DNA of 64,000 nucleotides from Escherichia coli. Lineage in GTDB: Bacteria > Pseudomonadota > Gammaproteobacteria > Enterobacterales > Enterobacteriaceae. The stretch is taken from NCBI RefSeq assembly GCF_002854065.1, contig NZ_CP024147.1; one strand, given 5' to 3'. The first letter of the stretch is position 1, and every line of letters starts with the position of its first letter. A program made the translations under genes and the position numbers. Below, piece after piece: positions 48,579-63,792 of the stretch. Below the pieces are notes generated by a model. That model had not been told where the DNA came from. It did no database searches and saw nothing but the letters and a program-made list of their open reading frames with translations.

Positions 48579-50837
48579 ATGCGCGTTGATGCCATTGCTA
48601 AGGTCACCGGGCGGGCACGATATACTGACGATTATGTTATGGCGGGCATGTGTTATGCGAAATATGTACGTAGCCCTATCGCACATGGTTATGCCGTAAG
48701 TATTAATGATGAACAAGCCAGAAGTTTACCAGGCGTACTGGCGATTTTTACCTGGGAAGATGTGCCTGATATCCCATTCGCTACAGCTGGGCATGCATGG
48801 ACACTTGACGAAAACAAGCGCGATACCGCCGATCGCGCACTGCTAACTCGCCATGTTCGTCATCATGGTGACGCCGTTGCCATCGTCGTGGCCCGCGATG
48901 AACTCACGGCAGAAAAAGCGGCGCAATTGGTCAGCATTGAGTGGCAAGAATTACCCGTTATCACCACGCCAGAAGCGGCGCTGGCAGAGGACGCTGCACC
49001 AATCCATAACGGCGGCAATTTACTGAAACAAAGCACGATGTCGACGGGCAATGTCCAACAAACAATCGATGCCGCCGACTACCAGGTACAGGGGCACTAT
49101 CAGACTCCCGTTATTCAACATTGTCACATGGAAAGCGTAACATCGCTGGCGTGGATGGAGGATGACTCGCGAATTACCATCGTTTCCAGCACCCAGATCC
49201 CGCACATTGTTCGCCGCGTGGTTGGTCAGGCGCTGGATATTCCCTGGTCATGCGTACGAGTCATCAAACCATTTGTCGGTGGCGGTTTTGGTAATAAACA
49301 GGATGTACTGGAAGAGCCAATGGCGGCATTCCTGACCAGCAAGCTTGGCGGCATTCCGGTGAAAGTTTCCCTTAGCCGTGAAGAGTGTTTCCTCGCAACC
49401 CGTACCCGCCACGCTTTTACTATTGACGGGCAAATGGGCGTGAGCCGCGACGGAACATTGAAAGGTTATAGTCTGGATGTTCTGTCTAACACCGGCGCTT
49501 ATGCATCTCACGGGCACTCCATCGCTTCTGCGGGGGGGAATAAAGTCGCTTACCTTTATCCTCGTTGTGCCTACGCTTACAGTTCAAAGACCTGCTATAC
49601 CAACCTCCCCTCGGCTGGTGCGATGCGTGGTTATGGCGCGCCACAAGTCGTATTTGCCGTTGAGTCTATGCTTGATGACGCCGCGACAGCGTTAGGTATT
49701 GATCCTGTTGAAATTCGTTTACGCAACGCCGCACGCGAAGGAGATGCTAATCCGCTCACGGGCAAACGTATTTACAGCGCAGGGTTGCCGGAGTGTCTTG
49801 AAAAAGGCCGGAAAATCTTTGAATGGGAAAAACGCCGTGTAGAATGCCAGAACCAGCAAGGCAATTTACGCCGCGGCGTTGGCGTCGCCTGTTTTAGCTA
49901 CACCTCTAATACCTGGCCTGTCGGCGTAGAAATAGCAGGCGCGCGCCTTCTGATGAATCAGGATGGAACCATCAACGTGCAAAGCGGCGCGACGGAAATC
50001 GGTCAGGGTGCCGACACCGTCTTCTCGCAAATGGTGGCAGAAACCGTGGGGGTTCCGGTCAGCGACGTTCGCGTTATTTCAACACAAGATACCGACGTTA
50101 CGCCGTTCGATCCCGGCGCATTTGCCTCACGCCAGAGCTATGTTGCTGCGCCTGCGCTGCGCAGTGCGGCACTGTTATTAAAAGAGAAAATCATCGCTCA
50201 CGCCGCAGTCATGCTACATCAGTCAGCGATGAATCTGACCCTGATAAAAGGCCATATCGTGCTGGTTGAACGACCGGAAGAGCCGTTAATGTCGTTAAAA
50301 GATTTGGCGATGGACGCTTTCTACCACCCTGAACGCGGCGGGCAGCTCTCTGCTGAAAGCTCCATCAAAACCACCACTAACCCACCGGCGTTCGGCTGTA
50401 CCTTTGTTGATCTGACGGTCGATATTGCGCTGTGCAAAGTCACCATCAACCGCATCCTCAACGTTCATGATTCGGGGCATATTCTAAATCCGCTGCTGGC
50501 AGAAGGTCAGGTACACGGCGGAATGGGAATGGGCATTGGCTGGGCGCTATTTGAAGAGATGATCATCGATGCGAAAAGCGGCGTGGTCCGTAACCCCAAT
50601 CTGCTGGATTACAAAATGCCGACCATGCCGGATCTGCCACAACTGGAAAGCGCGTTCGTCGAAATCAATGAGCCGCAATCCGCATACGGACATAAGTCAC
50701 TGGGTGAGCCACCAATAATTCCTGTTGCCGCTGCTATTCGTAACGCGGTGAAGATGGCTACCGGTGTTGCAATCAATACACTGCCGCTGACGCCAAAACG
50801 GTTATATGAAGAGTTTCATCTGGCAGGATTGATTTGA
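48579..50837 (+). CDS. xdhA: Xanthine dehydrogenase molybdenum-binding subunit
   Basis: ORF 48540..50837; product from MRVDAIAKVTGRARYTDDYV is 752 aa; aldehyde-oxidase/xanthine-dehydrogenase MoCo domain. Confidence 0.93.
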   Translation: MRVDAIAKVTGRARYTDDYVMAGMCYAKYVRSPIAHGYAVSINDEQARSLPGVLAIFTWEDVPDIPFATAGHAWTLDENKRDTADRALLTRHVRHHGDAVAIVVARDELTAEKAAQLVSIEWQELPVITTPEAALAEDAAPIHNGGNLLKQSTMSTGNVQQTIDAADYQVQGHYQTPVIQHCHMESVTSLAWMEDDSRITIVSSTQIPHIVRRVVGQALDIPWSCVRVIKPFVGGGFGNKQDVLEEPMAAFLTSKLGGIPVKVSLSREECFLATRTRHAFTIDGQMGVSRDGTLKGYSLDVLSNTGAYASHGHSIASAGGNKVAYLYPRCAYAYSSKTCYTNLPSAGAMRGYGAPQVVFAVESMLDDAATALGIDPVEIRLRNAAREGDANPLTGKRIYSAGLPECLEKGRKIFEWEKRRVECQNQQGNLRRGVGVACFSYTSNTWPVGVEIAGARLLMNQDGTINVQSGATEIGQGADTVFSQMVAETVGVPVSDVRVISTQDTDVTPFDPGAFASRQSYVAAPALRSAALLLKEKIIAHAAVMLHQSAMNLTLIKGHIVLVERPEEPLMSLKDLAMDAFYHPERGGQLSAESSIKTTTNPPAFGCTFVDLTVDIALCKVTINRILNVHDSGHILNPLLAEGQVHGGMGMGIGWALFEEMIIDAKSGVVRNPNLLDYKMPTMPDLPQLESAFVEINEPQSAYGHKSLGEPPIIPVAAAIRNAVKMATGVAINTLPLTPKRLYEEFHLAGLI

Positions 50838-50847
50838 AGATAACATC

Positions 50848-51726
50848 ATGTTTGATTTTGCTTCTTACCATCGCGCAGCAACCCTTGCCGATGCCATCAA
50901 CCTGCTGGCTGACAACCCGCAGGCCAAACTGCTCGCCGGTGGCACTGACGTACTGATTCAGCTCCACCATCACAATGACCGTTATCGCCATATTGTTGAT
51001 ATTCATAATCTGGCGGAGCTGCGGGGAATTACGCTGGCGGAAGATGGCTCGCTACGTATCGGCTCTGCAACGACATTTACCCAGCTAATAGAAGATCCTA
51101 TAACTCAACGTCATCTCCCGGCGTTATGTGCTGCGGCCTCGTCCATTGCTGGACCGCAGATCCGTAACGTCGCTACCTACGGTGGAAATATTTGCAACGG
51201 TGCCACCAGCGCAGATTCTGCCACGCCAACGCTCATTTATGACGCGAAACTGGAGATCCACTCCCCACGCAGTGTTCGTTTCGTCCCGATTAATGGCTTT
51301 CACACCGGGCCGGGCAAAGTGTCTCTTGAGCATGACGAAATCCTTGTCGCCTTTCATTTTCCGCCCCAGCCGAAAGAACACGTGGGCAGCGCGCATTTTA
51401 AATATGCCATGCGCGACGCAATGGATATTTCAACGATTGGCTGCGCCGCACATTGCCGACTGGATAACGGCAATTTCAGCGAATTACGTCTGGCATTTGG
51501 TGTTGCCGCGCCAACGCCGATTCGCTGCCAACATGCCGAACAGACTGCACAAAATGCGCCATTAAACCTGCAAACGCTTGAAGCTATCAGCGAATCTGTC
51601 CTGCAAGATGTCGCCCCGCGTTCTTCATGGCGGGCCAGTAAAGAGTTTCGTCTGCATCTCATCCAGACGATGACCAAAAAAGTGATTAGCGAAGCCGTCG
51701 CCGCGGCGGGGGGAAAATTGCAATGA
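50848..51726 (+). CDS. xdhB: Xanthine dehydrogenase FAD-binding subunit
   Basis: 292-aa [42 protein letters not shown] (CO-dehydrogenase flavoprotein fold). Confidence 0.93.
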
Positions 51727-62340: not shown

Positions 62341-63111
62341 CTAATTCACAAATCTGCGCGCGATTGCAGGATGTTCTTGTATATCGCCCAGCCAGATTGC
62401 CTCTACGTCATGTTGTTGCAGCGGTTGAAGGAGCTCGCTTTGTGCAATCGCATTCTCACATTGAGAAAAACGGTTAATGAACCAGACTCGCCGACAACCT
62501 TGCGGTACGTTTTTAAACGCCCCCTGAGGGTGGCGAACCAGCGCAACGAGATCGCTCAGTTGCAAGGTTGCATCAGGTGTTAACCCGGTAATATCAGCAA
62601 ACTGCGACCAGCGATGGACATTTTCTGTGCTCACTTTCGCGCCCAAAGTATGTCCTCCCATCACAGCAATCACGCAGCAACTGCTTTTGGGTATGCAAGG
62701 TTCGTGCTCATCAGGCGCTTTTAACGGCATTCCACGCGAGCCATCTGCTTCAATGAGAATTACGTCACACTCTGGTCGTTGCACCAGTGCATCAATCGCT
62801 TCTGGCGTAAATCCCTGCACTTTTCCCTGGTTCGCTTTCCAGCTGTGAAAACAAAATGAAATGGGGGATGTAAGAGACGCATGAGGAAGCATGGCGGGAT
62901 CACGACAGAAAACCACGGGCCAGTGTGACTTTGGCATAAACATATGTGTCGTCGTAGTGATTAACACACGCCTGCCGCGAGTCTGGAGCAGTTCTGCCAG
63001 CCAAAAAAGCAAGCTGGTTTTCCCCCCAGCACCAACAACAGAAATCACAGTGGGACGTTTCTGCGCACCTAAATCAATGAATAATGCCGATGGGTCAACT
63101 ATACTTTTCAC
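62341..63111 (-). CDS. yqeC: Putative selenium-dependent hydroxylase accessory protein YqeC
   Basis: 256-aa ORF MKSIVDPSALFIDLGAQKRPTVISVVGAGGKTSLLFWLAELLQTRGRRVLITTTTHM (P-loop). Confidence 0.88.
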   Translation of the reverse strand: MKSIVDPSALFIDLGAQKRPTVISVVGAGGKTSLLFWLAELLQTRGRRVLITTTTHMFMPKSHWPVVFCRDPAMLPHASLTSPISFCFHSWKANQGKVQGFTPEAIDALVQRPECDVILIEADGSRGMPLKAPDEHEPCIPKSSCCVIAVMGGHTLGAKVSTENVHRWSQFADITGLTPDATLQLSDLVALVRHPQGAFKNVPQGCRRVWFINRFSQCENAIAQSELLQPLQQHDVEAIWLGDIQEHPAIARRFVN

Positions 63112-63213
63112 GAGTCTTTATGACCTCTCTGGGATAAATTACCCCCAACTTAATCCATCAGGAAGTAACGCAATTATCAGGCGTTATTAGCCCCTATAAA
63201 TAATGGAACCACT

Positions 63214-63792
63214 ATGTCAGCCATCGACTGTATAATTACCGCTGCCGGATTATCATCAAGAATGGGGCAATGGAAAATGATGTTACCCTGGCAACAGGGA
63301 ACAATTCTTGATACAAGTATCAAAAATGCGTTGCAGTTTTGTAGCCGAATTATTTTAGTCACCGGCTATCGTGGTAATGAACTGCACGAACGTTATGCGA
63401 ACCAGAGTAATATCACTATTATTCACAACCCAGATTATGCCCAGGGTTTACTAACATCAGTCAAGGCCGCAGTACCCGCAGTGCAAACAGAACATTGTTT
63501 TCTCACCCACGGTGACATGCCAACCCTCACCATTGATATTTTTAGAAAAATCTGGTCGTTACGAAATGATGGCGCAATACTGCCACTCCATAATGGCATC
63601 CCCGGCCATCCGATTTTAGTGTCAAAACCATGCTTGATGCAGGCATTCCAGCGACCCAATGTCACCAATATGCGTCAGGCACTCCTTATGGGAGATCATT
63701 ATTCCGTCGAAATAGAAAATGCAGAAATAATTTTAGATATTGATACTCCGGACGACTTTATTACAGCGAAGAAAAGGTATACTGAAATTTAG
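63214..63792 (+). CDS. ygfJ: Molybdenum cofactor cytidylyltransferase (MocA)
   Basis: 192-aa ORF MSAIDCIITAAGLSSRMGQWKMMLPWQQGTILDTSIKNAL (MobA-like nucleotidyltransferase fold). Confidence 0.88.
   Translation: MSAIDCIITAAGLSSRMGQWKMMLPWQQGTILDTSIKNALQFCSRIILVTGYRGNELHERYANQSNITIIHNPDYAQGLLTSVKAAVPAVQTEHCFLTHGDMPTLTIDIFRKIWSLRNDGAILPLHNGIPGHPILVSKPCLMQAFQRPNVTNMRQALLMGDHYSVEIENAEIILDIDTPDDFITAKKRYTEI

Follow-up and report, generated by a model that had tools for sequence, protein, structure and literature searches.

The closest described system is the 2,8-dioxopurine cluster of Escherichia coli K-12 (b2866-b2888) and of gut anaerobes (Liu et al. 2023/2025; Kasahara et al. 2023; Li et al. 2025). 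Two laboratories, Liu et al. (bioRxiv 10.1101/2025.04.24.650524) and Li et al. (Life Metab 2025, PMC12507026), each reconstituted uric acid's conversion into pyruvate using E. coli enzymes of this cluster, the latter stepwise and with enzymes of both E. coli and C. difficile, and a commentary summarises both studies (PMC12990295). In the reconstituted route, urate is converted to 2,8-dioxopurine by XdhD-YgfM, followed by reduction and ring opening by YgfK and SsnA, and then by the successive actions of HyuA, YgeW and YqeA (yielding ATP), YgeY, and YgeX, which gives pyruvate.

Two other pathways offer partial parallels. The reductive pyrimidine (Pyd) pathway (PydA, PydB, PydC) also begins with a reductive dearomatisation, after which a cyclic amidohydrolase opens the ring and ureido cleavage follows, an analogy also drawn by Li et al. 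(PMC12507026), and HyuA scores in the dihydropyrimidinase family. In contrast to the Pyd pathway, which ends in beta-alanine, the purine substrate here is bicyclic, which makes it necessary to remove two rings as well as two ureido groups, one ureido group is phosphorolysed by YgeW with a gain of ATP, and the route leads to 2,3-diaminopropionate and from there to pyruvate. The arginine deiminase pathway (ornithine carbamoyltransferase and carbamate kinase) likewise joins a phosphorolytic carbamoyltransferase to a carbamate kinase for substrate-level ATP synthesis, but YgeW is a knotted carbamoyltransferase from a family of its own (TIGR03316; PDB 3Q98), and its substrate is a diureido acid, not citrulline.

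Extent and content of the locus

The DNA analysed, here called the window, is a 64,000-nucleotide stretch of an E. coli strain other than K-12 (contig NZ_CP024147.1). Based on the list of open reading frames and the RefSeq annotation of a 100%-identical stretch in E. coli CUWW06, positions 48540-63792 hold 12 intact, contiguous genes in the order xdhABC, ygeV, ygeW, ygeX/dpaL, ygeY, hyuA, yqeA/arcC, yqeB, yqeC, and mocA/ygfJ, with a coding share of 94% and intergenic gaps, from xdhA to mocA, of 10, -4, 39, 478, 57, 57, 52, 47, 40, 47, and 102 bp. These are the genes of the K-12 and gut-anaerobe cluster in the same order, the lower-pathway enzymes characterised there are those encoded here, and there is no difference of substance. 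A preliminary description of positions 48579-63792 had named this gene set, which is indeed present, contiguous, intact, and in the order it gave. It had also called the genes a tight unit; the contiguity holds, but the genes form five blocks of alternating direction (xdhABC, plus; ygeV, minus; ygeWXY-hyuA-yqeA, plus; yqeCB, minus; mocA, plus), and the twelve-gene stretch is not one operon.

Of the 5426 complete E. coli genomes, 5328 carry the stretch. Nucleotide identity to other E. coli genomes is 95-100%, with CUWW06 the only genome seen at 100%, and the upstream ETT2/IS region of this strain has an arrangement of its own. The end of the window cuts the cluster, leaving the first 12 of ∼22 genes; in CUWW06 these are followed by ygfK, ssnA, ygfM, xdhD, xanQ, guaD, ghxQ, ygfS, ygfT, and uacT, the transporter genes among them. 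The E. coli purine/uric-acid catabolic locus extends over ∼31 kb from xdhA to uacT, and the genes analysed here make up its promoter-proximal half. The committing enzymes XdhD-YgfM, YgfK, and SsnA are not in the window, and the window alone encodes no complete pathway.

Taken together, we consider it highly probable (about 0.93) that the locus comprises XdhABC, five lower-pathway genes of anaerobic, reductive urate breakdown (the 2,8-dioxopurine route), molybdenum cofactor maturation genes, and the activator YgeV. In this assignment the gene identities, synteny, and promoter motifs come from our analysis, and the enzymology and mutant phenotypes from the cited papers. Eleven proteins matched NCBIfam equivalog models over nearly their full length with scores above the curated cut-offs (given in bits below), and YgeV was identified by Pfam.

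The first block encodes the Mo-binding (xdhA, 48540-50837; 1484 bits), FAD-binding (xdhB, 50848-51726; 532 bits), and [2Fe-2S] (xdhC, 51723-52202; 342 bits) subunits of xanthine dehydrogenase, which oxidises hypoxanthine and xanthine, with urate as the product. XdhABC feeds the ring-cleavage route without being one of its steps, and a delta-xdhA phenotype has been described (PMC12507026). True xdhABC orthologues do not adjoin ygeV in most other Enterobacterales sampled, and are often unlinked to ygeV-ygeW. The preliminary description began xdhA at 48579, which is the start of the 752-aa K-12 protein, but the true start is probably 39 nt earlier, at 48540, because the 765-aa reading frame from that position is preceded by a GAGGGG Shine-Dalgarno sequence, and the XdhA model aligns from residue 5. 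A GC-rich, terminator-like hairpin (52209-52232) lies between the convergent xdhC and ygeV.

The lower-pathway genes follow on the plus strand. Once XdhD-YgfM has reduced urate to 2,8-dioxopurine, YgfK reduces this product and SsnA then opens the pyrimidine ring, all four being encoded beyond the window. The hydantoinase HyuA (58262-59647; D-hydantoinase/dihydropyrimidinase model, 675 bits) opens ureidomethyl-hydantoin at its hydantoin ring, yielding 2,3-diureidopropionate. YgeW (54499-55686; 825 bits; OTCace_N and OTCace domains) phosphorolyses one ureido group of this compound to carbamoyl phosphate, from which the carbamate kinase YqeA (59695-60627; 386 bits) forms ATP from ADP; the two groups are at odds over which ureido group, 2- or 3-, is cleaved by YgeW (PMC12507026; 10.1101/2025.04.24.650524; commentary PMC12990295). 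The M20 amidohydrolase YgeY (56998-58209; 721 bits) hydrolyses off the remaining ureido group, and the PLP-dependent ammonia-lyase YgeX/DpaL (55744-56940; 651 bits) deaminates 2,3-diaminopropionate to pyruvate and 2 NH3. A strong hairpin followed by a T-run (60634-60659), also terminator-like, separates the convergent yqeA and yqeB.

The preliminary description identified the genes correctly and was right to guess at the breakdown of purines or N-heterocycles, but its view that the pathway chemistry was only partly characterised is outdated, two reconstitutions in 2025 having covered the complete route, with uric acid as the start and pyruvate as the end. Of the checks it proposed, gene co-occurrence had previously been published (Haft & Self 2008, PMC2276186; a 2022 preprint; PMC12507026 in 2025), and metabolomics of deletion mutants had been performed in 2025 (10.1101/2025.04.24.650524). 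The finding is real but ordinary: the locus is well known, and its chemistry was solved in 2025 by two laboratories.

Sigma-54 promoters and a candidate YgeV operator

Sigma-54 ChIP-seq sites have been mapped at xdhA, ygeW, ygfK, and ygfT (PMC4591121). The window contains exact matches to two of these motifs, OS29 at the xdhABC promoter (48468-48484, CTGGCGTAAATCTTGCC, plus strand, a single occurrence in the window) and OS30 at the ygeW promoter (54389-54405, CTGGCACACTTATTGTT, plus strand), and the ygfK promoter (∼64026) and coding sequence (64114 onward) lie just beyond its end. At PygeW, TGGCA and TTATTG are invariant in a 10-genus alignment, and a gSELEX RpoN peak is also found. A YgeV iModulon has been published (PMC10602906), with xdhABC, ygeWXY, hyuA, ygfK, ssnA, ygfM, xdhD, ygfT, and uacT as members; yqeA, yqeB, yqeC, mocA, and ygeV are not among its published genes (PMC12133099). 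Because the published sigma-54 motifs are exact at xdhA and ygeW, and because of the YgeV expression module, the cluster genes are not independently regulated, co-regulation being shown for the iModulon members rather than for every gene. Independent regulation of functionally unrelated genes, which the preliminary description had named as counter-evidence, is contradicted by these ChIP-seq sites, the iModulon, and the motifs in the window.

Upstream of the cluster's sigma-54 promoters, a palindrome, T(A/C)TCA-N3-TGA(T/G)A, is conserved in several genera, and it is a candidate YgeV operator that appears to be new relative to the literature searched. Candidate activator sites of the xdhA promoter lie at 48359-48408, where CTCATATTGATA (48359-48370) overlaps a perfect palindrome, TGATACGTATCA (48366-48377), ∼110 bp upstream of the -24 element, and a second, similar site, TGTTTCGTATCA, is at 48397-48408. 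In the divergent ygeV/ygeW region, the candidate operator is a block at 54164-54214 (ATCACA-N6-TATCAATATGAGA, with a second element, TTATCAAACTG, 16 bp on) that forms a conserved island in the 10-genus alignment (49% mean column identity). The palindrome in the mocA-ygfK spacer, TATCATAATGATA (63844-63856), has palindromic counterparts in the same place (239-271 bp upstream of ygfK) in loci L009, L019, and L039. An exact 12-mer is common to three promoter regions, ygeV/ygeW, PxdhA, and PygfT (0.01 expected), the relaxed palindrome has 6 matches (0.42 expected), five of them in the three cluster promoter regions, its position is conserved across genera, and sites orthologous to the ygeV/ygeW block were found in all 14 related intergenic regions, one by alignment only. 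Chance occurrences of the pattern are also seen within genes, in a uvrA-like gene in L003, in kduD at window position 35165, and in ygeX.

We infer that YgeV may bind such palindromes, which lie 110-210 bp upstream of the xdhA, ygeW, ygfK, and ygfT sigma-54 promoters, with CRP possibly modulating PygeW. A CRP-like site (TGTGATCAACCCCACA, 54331-54346), a conserved GTGA-N6-TCAC island, lies between the palindrome and the ygeW promoter, and Li et al. reported a native Crp site in the ygeV/ygeW region and glucose repression (PMC12507026).

A different protein, for example FNR or a DNA-bending nucleoid protein, might bind the palindrome instead, a reading that we regard as unlikely although it deserves serious weight. 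In its favour are the anaerobic nature of the pathway, the AT-richness of the motif, and the FNR-like box TTGATacgtATCAc (48365-48378), which overlaps the PxdhA copy and matches 9/10 positions of the FNR consensus. That consensus is TTGAT-N4-ATCAA, unlike the ygeW and ygfK copies, whose half-sites are in the opposite order with N3 spacing (TATCA-N3-TGATA), and the sites accompany ygeV and are placed at the distances usual for enhancer-binding proteins.

Architecture of YgeV

The ygeV (isrR) gene (52242-54020, minus strand) encodes a sigma-54 enhancer-binding protein (Sigma54_activat, 237 bits) that would act as the activator of the locus. Its domains are GAF (∼1-150), PAS (∼160-250), AAA+ (Walker A at 300, GAFTGA at 347), and HTH_8 (548-587), and there is no receiver domain. 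The GAFTGA motif and HTH_8 domain are shared with DhaR-type activators, which have the same GAF-PAS-AAA+-HTH order and also lack a receiver; the modelled N-terminal region matches DhaR(N) (4lrx, E = 3e-9), as well as tandem GAF/PAS sensors, with global TM values that are low (0.2-0.36) as two domains were superposed. In contrast to the DhaR type, the YgeV GAF domain bears an invariant Cys triad (C84-x2-C87-x5-C93). This receiver-less GAF-PAS sensor with its triad appears to be new relative to the literature searched, and we infer that the module may serve as the signal input.

YgeV has also been named IsrR, and could be mainly an indole-responsive virulence regulator, an orphan response regulator located beside purine genes by chance, with the flanking operons forming no single regulon. 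We consider this improbable: there is no receiver domain in YgeV, direct YgeV binding at LEE was not shown, and ygeV is divergent from ygeW in 14/14 relatives with that arrangement, with conserved upstream activator and sigma-54 elements between them (1/14 by alignment only). As described in papers citing Iwadate & Kato 2019 (PMC10602906 and the 2022 preprint), mutation of ygeV reduces ygfT expression and impairs the use of urate. The virulence and purine-regulator roles are not mutually exclusive.

Cofactor genes, selenium, and gene neighbourhoods

The last three genes would serve cofactor maturation for the molybdenum hydroxylases. YqeB (60668-62293, minus strand; 409 bits) has an XdhC-like N-terminal half fused to a TIGR03309 domain and is classed as an accessory protein of selenium-dependent molybdenum hydroxylases, YqeC (62341-63111, minus strand; TIGR03172, 241 bits) is a selenium-cofactor accessory protein, and MocA/YgfJ (63214-63792, plus strand; 214 bits) is the molybdenum cofactor cytidylyltransferase. 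MocA reportedly makes the MCD cofactor for enzymes of the XdhA/XdhD type (Neumann et al. 2009). All three markers of the selenium-dependent accessory set (TIGR03309, TIGR03172, and TIGR03310 for YgfJ) are adjacent here, and E. coli was among its founding examples (Haft & Self 2008, PMC2276186). Selenium dependence itself was demonstrated in C. sporogenes (10.1101/2025.04.24.650524), that is, in Clostridia rather than for E. coli XdhA/XdhD, and is cited within that paper for C. difficile.

Older annotation and family names, and a table labelling ygfK, ygfM, and ygfN as selenate reductase subunits (PMC2276186), would fit a selenium-metabolism locus in which YgfK/YgfM/XdhD reduce selenate, and ygeW-Y with yqeBC handle selenium rather than purines. 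This is very improbable, since YgfK activity neither needs nor is stimulated by selenate and 2,8-dioxopurine is specifically reduced, the substrates of YgeW, YgeY, and YgeX are ureido- and diaminopropionate intermediates, and the selenium link is best explained by cofactor maturation of molybdenum hydroxylases (10.1101/2025.04.24.650524). Just as improbable is a generic hydantoin or N-heterocycle cluster with substrates and steps largely unknown, as product names still generic in CUWW06 might suggest (D-phenylhydantoinase, YgeY family selenium metabolism-linked hydrolase, putative selenate reductase subunit YgfK), this view being superseded by the two independent reconstitutions, which give every catabolic enzyme of the stretch a substrate and a product.

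The purine-catabolic genes also keep company elsewhere. Anchoring on YgeW recovered 80 loci, and among the 41 with full 10-kb flanks, the neighbours inside these flanks were ygeY (39), yqeA (28), ygeX (27), hyuA (27), ygfK (19), and ssnA (18), across Pseudomonadota, Bacillota, Bacteroidota, Spirochaetota, and Elusimicrobia.

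Gene content and pathway chemistry

The segment at 48579-63792 is part of the E. coli chromosome, as seen from an ORF list for 44000-64000 and a megablast search of 5,426 complete E. coli genomes. It was found in 5328 of the 5426, with coverage of at least 80% in 5154, and was 100% identical to E. coli CUWW06 and 99.5-99.8% identical to nine others among the genomes listed. Gene coordinates were taken from the RefSeq annotation of the CUWW06 stretch, which places xdhA (48540-50837), xdhB (50848-51726) and xdhC (51723-52202) on the plus strand, ygeV (52242-54020) on the minus strand, ygeW (54499-55686), ygeX, also called dpaL (55744-56940), ygeY (56998-58209), hyuA (58262-59647) and yqeA, also called arcC (59695-60627), on the plus strand, yqeB (60668-62293) and yqeC (62341-63111) on the minus strand, and mocA, also called ygfJ (63214-63792), on the plus strand. 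All twelve genes of the cluster proposed in the preliminary description were confirmed by ORFs, megablast, RefSeq annotation, NCBIfam and Pfam. The products gave end-to-end NCBIfam equivalog matches, all above the curated cut-off, with YgeV assigned by Pfam as a sigma-54 activator; hyuA, ygeW, ygeY, ygeX and yqeA are intact and contiguous on the plus strand (54499-60627), with full-length matches above the equivalog cut-offs. Coding density is 94%.

Annotations of xdhA differ, with a 752-aa product starting at 48579 (K-12 style, and the start used in the preliminary description) versus a 765-aa product starting at 48540 (PGAP). The true start is probably 48540: a good Shine-Dalgarno sequence precedes the longer reading frame, whose residue 5 is where the alignment to the XdhA equivalog model begins. 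The cluster had also been called a tight unit; its genes are indeed contiguous, but they form five blocks of alternating orientation rather than a single operon, and the locus runs past the window end. Its last 208 bp belong to the mocA-ygfK spacer, beyond which lie ygfK, ssnA, ygfM, xdhD, xanQ, guaD, ghxQ, ygfS, ygfT and uacT. Thus the upper-pathway genes (xdhD-ygfM, ygfK and ssnA) lie outside the window, directly downstream in the RefSeq annotation of the identical genome.

The pathway chemistry, previously thought to be only partly characterised, was solved by two independent studies in 2025. Using E. coli as well as C. difficile enzymes, Li et al. (Life Metab 2025, PMC12507026) reported that urate is converted to 2,8-dioxopurine by XdhD-YgfM with NADH, that YgfK and SsnA convert 2,8-dioxopurine to ureidomethyl-hydantoin, that HyuA opens the hydantoin ring, that one ureido group is removed by YgeW with phosphate, or by the C. 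difficile hydrolase UacY, and that YgeY and YgeX form pyruvate. Liu et al. (bioRxiv 10.1101/2025.04.24.650524) obtained ATP from 2,3-diureidopropionate via YgeW and YqeA. The group cleaved by YgeW is the 3-ureido according to Liu et al. (bioRxiv 10.1101/2025.04.24.650524) and the 2-ureido, giving albizziin, according to Li et al. (PMC12507026), and a commentary by Percudani (PMC12990295) lists the remaining open questions on the pathway. Deletion of xdhA abolished xanthine consumption and deletion of xdhD caused urate to build up (PMC12507026); XdhABC is a feeder enzyme of the urate pathway. The route resembles the reductive pyrimidine (Pyd) pathway in its reduction, ring opening by a cyclic amidohydrolase and ureido cleavage, and the arginine deiminase pathway in using a carbamoyltransferase and a carbamate kinase to make ATP. 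Judged by sequence, with every defining feature found at that level, the locus is E. coli's established reductive-urate (2,8-dioxopurine) cluster, and the earlier identification was correct yet already known.

Markers of molybdenum and selenium accessory functions (TIGR03309, TIGR03172 and TIGR03310; 409, 241 and 214 bits) adjoin molybdenum hydroxylase genes, with xdhABC 8.5 kb away and xdhD downstream in the identical genome. MocA, in work attributed to Neumann and colleagues in 2009, reportedly produces, for enzymes of the XdhA/XdhD type, the molybdenum cofactor in its cytidine dinucleotide form. In C. sporogenes, XDH and 2,8-dioxopurine dehydrogenase require SelD and selenium (Liu et al.; also cited for C. 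difficile), in keeping with the roles proposed for YqeB and YqeC. A 23-gene region for purine catabolism and selenium-dependent molybdenum hydroxylases had already been recognised as a unit by Haft and Self (2008, PMC2276186).

Gut bacteria carrying the locus remove host urate, which makes it relevant to hyperuricaemia and gout, and this importance is already recognised; E. coli Nissle engineered at the ygeV-ygeW spacer lowered serum urate in uricase-deficient mice (PMC12507026). With the chemistry solved, the original finding adds nothing new, and the useful remainder is regulatory. E. coli strains with enzymes more than 98% identical differ in urate consumption (Liu et al., bioRxiv 10.1101/2025.04.24.650524), and once defined, the operator and sensor of YgeV would help to explain such differences and would aid the design of inducible or constitutive uricolytic probiotics.

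Sigma-54 promoters and transcript structure

The preliminary description had held that independent regulation would count against the cluster as a functional unit. The evidence points the opposite way, from sigma-54 sites, an RpoN peak and a YgeV iModulon. ChIP-seq placed sigma-54 sites at xdhA, ygeW, ygfK and ygfT (PMC4591121), and in the window exact matches to the published motifs are found at 48468-48484 for xdhA and at 54389-54405 for ygeW, one match each. The ygfK motif lies at ∼64026, ∼26 bp beyond the window end. Elements with GG at -24 and GC at -12 are present upstream of the operons, and across 10 genera the one at ygeW does not vary. A gSELEX RpoN peak falls within the ygeV/ygeW spacer. 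Decomposition of 1035 RNA-seq samples yielded the YgeV iModulon (PMC10602906), whose listed members are xdhABC, ygeWXY, hyuA, ygfK, ssnA, ygfM, xdhD, ygfT and uacT; hyuA is thus on the list and yqeA is absent from it (PMC12133099). Another gene, ybiY, is a member too. Expression of ygfT is cited as lower in a ygeV mutant (Iwadate and Kato 2019, as cited in PMC10602906), and urate induces ygfK and ygfT (2022 preprint). Glucose represses the pathway, and to render it constitutive Li et al. exchanged a native Crp site in the ygeV-ygeW spacer (PMC12507026).

Pattern searches of a more general kind were uninformative. A sigma-54 pattern with an incorrect 8-N spacing gave 96 matches versus 87 expected, and published motifs were used in its place together with a pattern of 7 N; a generic sigma-70 promoter scan gave no enrichment (18 found versus 19.8 expected). 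Rfam detected no RNA family within the cluster, and elsewhere in the window only OmrA/OmrB and tRNA-Gly.

Terminator-like hairpins, used here only as descriptive marks, lie in the xdhC/ygeV gap (52209-52232), after ygeW in the 57-bp ygeW-ygeX spacer (55693-55714, GC-rich), after ygeY in the 52-bp ygeY-hyuA spacer (58227-58246, GC-rich and followed by TTTTT) and after yqeA (60634-60659). The database operon "ygeWXY" (PMC10602906) is consistent with the hairpin behind ygeY, yet hyuA belongs to the iModulon. The hairpins after ygeW and ygeY could attenuate transcription or stabilise segments of a ygeW-yqeA transcript.

A candidate YgeV operator and the sensor domains of YgeV

Of the four sigma-54 promoters, three have an exact 12-mer, CTCATATTGATA, upstream: at PxdhA (48359-48370), in the ygeV/ygeW spacer (54176-54187, minus strand) and, beyond the window, at PygfT (locus L002). 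A variant with two mismatches lies in the mocA-ygfK spacer (63845-63856). Of the exact 12-mer the window has two copies where 0.01 would be expected, and the relaxed core TCAWWWTGAKA gave 6 matches versus 0.42 expected, 5 of the 6 in three promoter regions of the cluster. The copy at PxdhA overlaps an FNR-like box.

The palindrome T(A/C)TCA-N3-TGA(T/G)A was present in the ygeV-ygeW spacers of 14 relatives with divergent ygeV, ∼280-430 bp (usually 280-350 bp) upstream of the ygeW ATG, and GTGAT, GTGAC or GCGAT comes seven bases after it in the 11 sites nearest to E. coli. The Pluralibacter palindrome was missed by the pattern searches and is visible only in the alignment, as TCTCAATGTGATA. Spacers from 10 genera aligned with a mean column identity of only 49%, and conservation was confined to four islands. 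One island, close to ygeV, consists of two TGATA elements, and another of ATCACA-N6-TATCAATATGAKA, to which a second TTATCAWWWTG belongs. A third, GTGA-N6-TCAC, is CRP-like (54331-54346 in E. coli), and the last is the sigma-54 promoter, where TGGCA and TTATTG are invariant. Upstream of ygfK, the palindrome also occurs in E. coli, Erwinia mallotivora, a Cedecea locus and locus L009, at a distance of 239-271 bp; in Cedecea sulfonylureivorans an xdhD-like gene has one 221-223 bp upstream.

The position of the sites, 110-210 bp upstream of the sigma-54 elements, and their co-occurrence with ygeV lead us to infer that the palindromes are a candidate YgeV operator. The xdhA, ygeW, ygfK and ygfT promoters would then share a common, previously undescribed operator, often flanked by ATCAC/GTGAT, whose position would be conserved from Escherichia to Photobacterium. 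Judged by titles, opening portions of abstracts and selected passages, a YgeV binding site is apparently defined in none of 30 searchable papers mentioning ygeV from 2019 on.

The pattern also occurs in coding DNA, at 35165 (kduD), at 56020 (ygeX) and in an apparent uvrA. The last of these (L003:5407) is inside a 943-aa ORF that is uvrA-like by size, and it was treated, with those at L005:5414 and L008:4989, as a coding or chance match rather than as an additional regulon member.

A further palindrome of the promoter-site type, TCTCACATTGAGA, lies within the 3' end of yqeC (62454-62466), ∼160 bp upstream of the yqeB start. Its DNA is kept in two Aeromonas loci and one of Cedecea while the encoded amino acids vary (FSQCEN, DYQNEA and LSQNEN). 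The site might extend the regulon to yqeB; no sigma-54 promoter was found between it and that gene.

In an mBio paper ygeV was renamed isrR and its product described as an indole-induced orphan response regulator. The activator part comprises Sigma54_activat at residues 272-439, Walker A GESGTGK at 300, GAFTGA at 347 and HTH_8 at 548-587, with Walker A and GAFTGA intact. However, Pfam gave no Response_reg match at E <= 0.01. When residues 1-272 were modelled with AlphaFold from 15 orthologues (mean pLDDT 76), the fold was that of a GAF and a PAS domain, matching DhaR(N) as well as sensors with tandem GAF/PAS. A sequence search of residues 1-270 against the PDB recovered only the PAS part, the GAF domain being visible only with the structure model. 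The missing receiver domain and the modelled N-terminus speak against classification as a response regulator; on the model, together with the intact GAFTGA and Walker A motifs, YgeV is a one-component GAF-PAS enhancer-binding protein. In the ortholog alignment C84, C87 and C93 of the GAF domain are invariant (C-x2-C-x5-C) and C109 is conserved in at least 90%. The signal could be urate, 2,8-dioxopurine, indole, redox state or a metal; the cysteine triad suggests a metal, Fe-S or redox input, alongside or instead of a purine ligand. We give a probability of about 0.45, a little short of even, to the combined reading, in which the shared element at PxdhA, PygeW, PygfK and PygfT is the YgeV site and YgeV senses through its GAF-PAS cysteine triad rather than acting as a response regulator.

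Distribution of the cluster and neighbouring DNA

To examine co-occurrence, a scan seeded with YgeW, using one genome per species, gave 80 loci from Enterobacterales, Aeromonas, Photobacterium, Bacillota, Bacteroidota, Spirochaetota, Elusimicrobia and others, against which the full set of 22 E. coli cluster proteins was run by tblastn. Genes were counted when within 10 kb of ygeW, in the 41 loci with full 10-kb flanks. In this comparison, of a kind proposed as a check in the preliminary description, the catabolic genes proved to be linked to ygeW across distant phyla: ygeY in 39/41 loci, yqeA in 28, ygeX and hyuA in 27 each, ygfK in 19 and ssnA in 18, so that the catabolic core is a conserved module. 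Counts for the other genes were 17 for ygeV, 13 for xdhA-like genes, 10 for yqeB and 9 each for yqeC and mocA. By tblastn, no true xdhABC orthologue lay within 10 kb in the Edwardsiella, Hafnia, Pluralibacter, Kosakonia and Serratia loci, and the linkage of xdhABC to ygeV in E. coli is a lineage feature, not a general one.

Many MAGs of non-gut origin (Bacteroidota, Kiritimatiellae and Elusimicrobia) carry an adjacent ygeY-ygeW pair with no ygeX, yqeA or ygfK within 10 kb (L025, L028-L035, L046, L048, L052, L067, L079, L082 and others), and only a few (L035 and L052) have hyuA or ssnA homologues. These pairs may serve another ureido-compound pathway, or their partner genes may be located elsewhere. 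In C. sulfonylureivorans and E. mallotivora the layout is different: upstream of ygeV there are ygfS-ygfT, mocA and an xdhABC-like set that is only distantly similar (27-44% identity), and in the former species a palindrome precedes the Mo-enzyme genes. The distant set may be a local 2,8-dioxopurine dehydrogenase.

On the other side of xdhA, 39200-48560 holds a decayed ETT2 type III secretion island with eivF-like, truncated sctC-like and ygeQ-like ORFs and an IS2 copy (∼44958-46231), adjoined by tRNA-Gly(CCC) (46440-46513) and actS. In none of the 5,426 complete E. coli genomes did a match in a single place cover at least 80% of this 9.4-kb arrangement, so its pattern of IS elements and deletions is strain-specific. 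Farther away, between aas and galR, the tandem sRNA genes OmrA/OmrB lie on the minus strand at 28267-28354 and 28470-28551 (Rfam RF00079, 96.6 and 86.1 bits).
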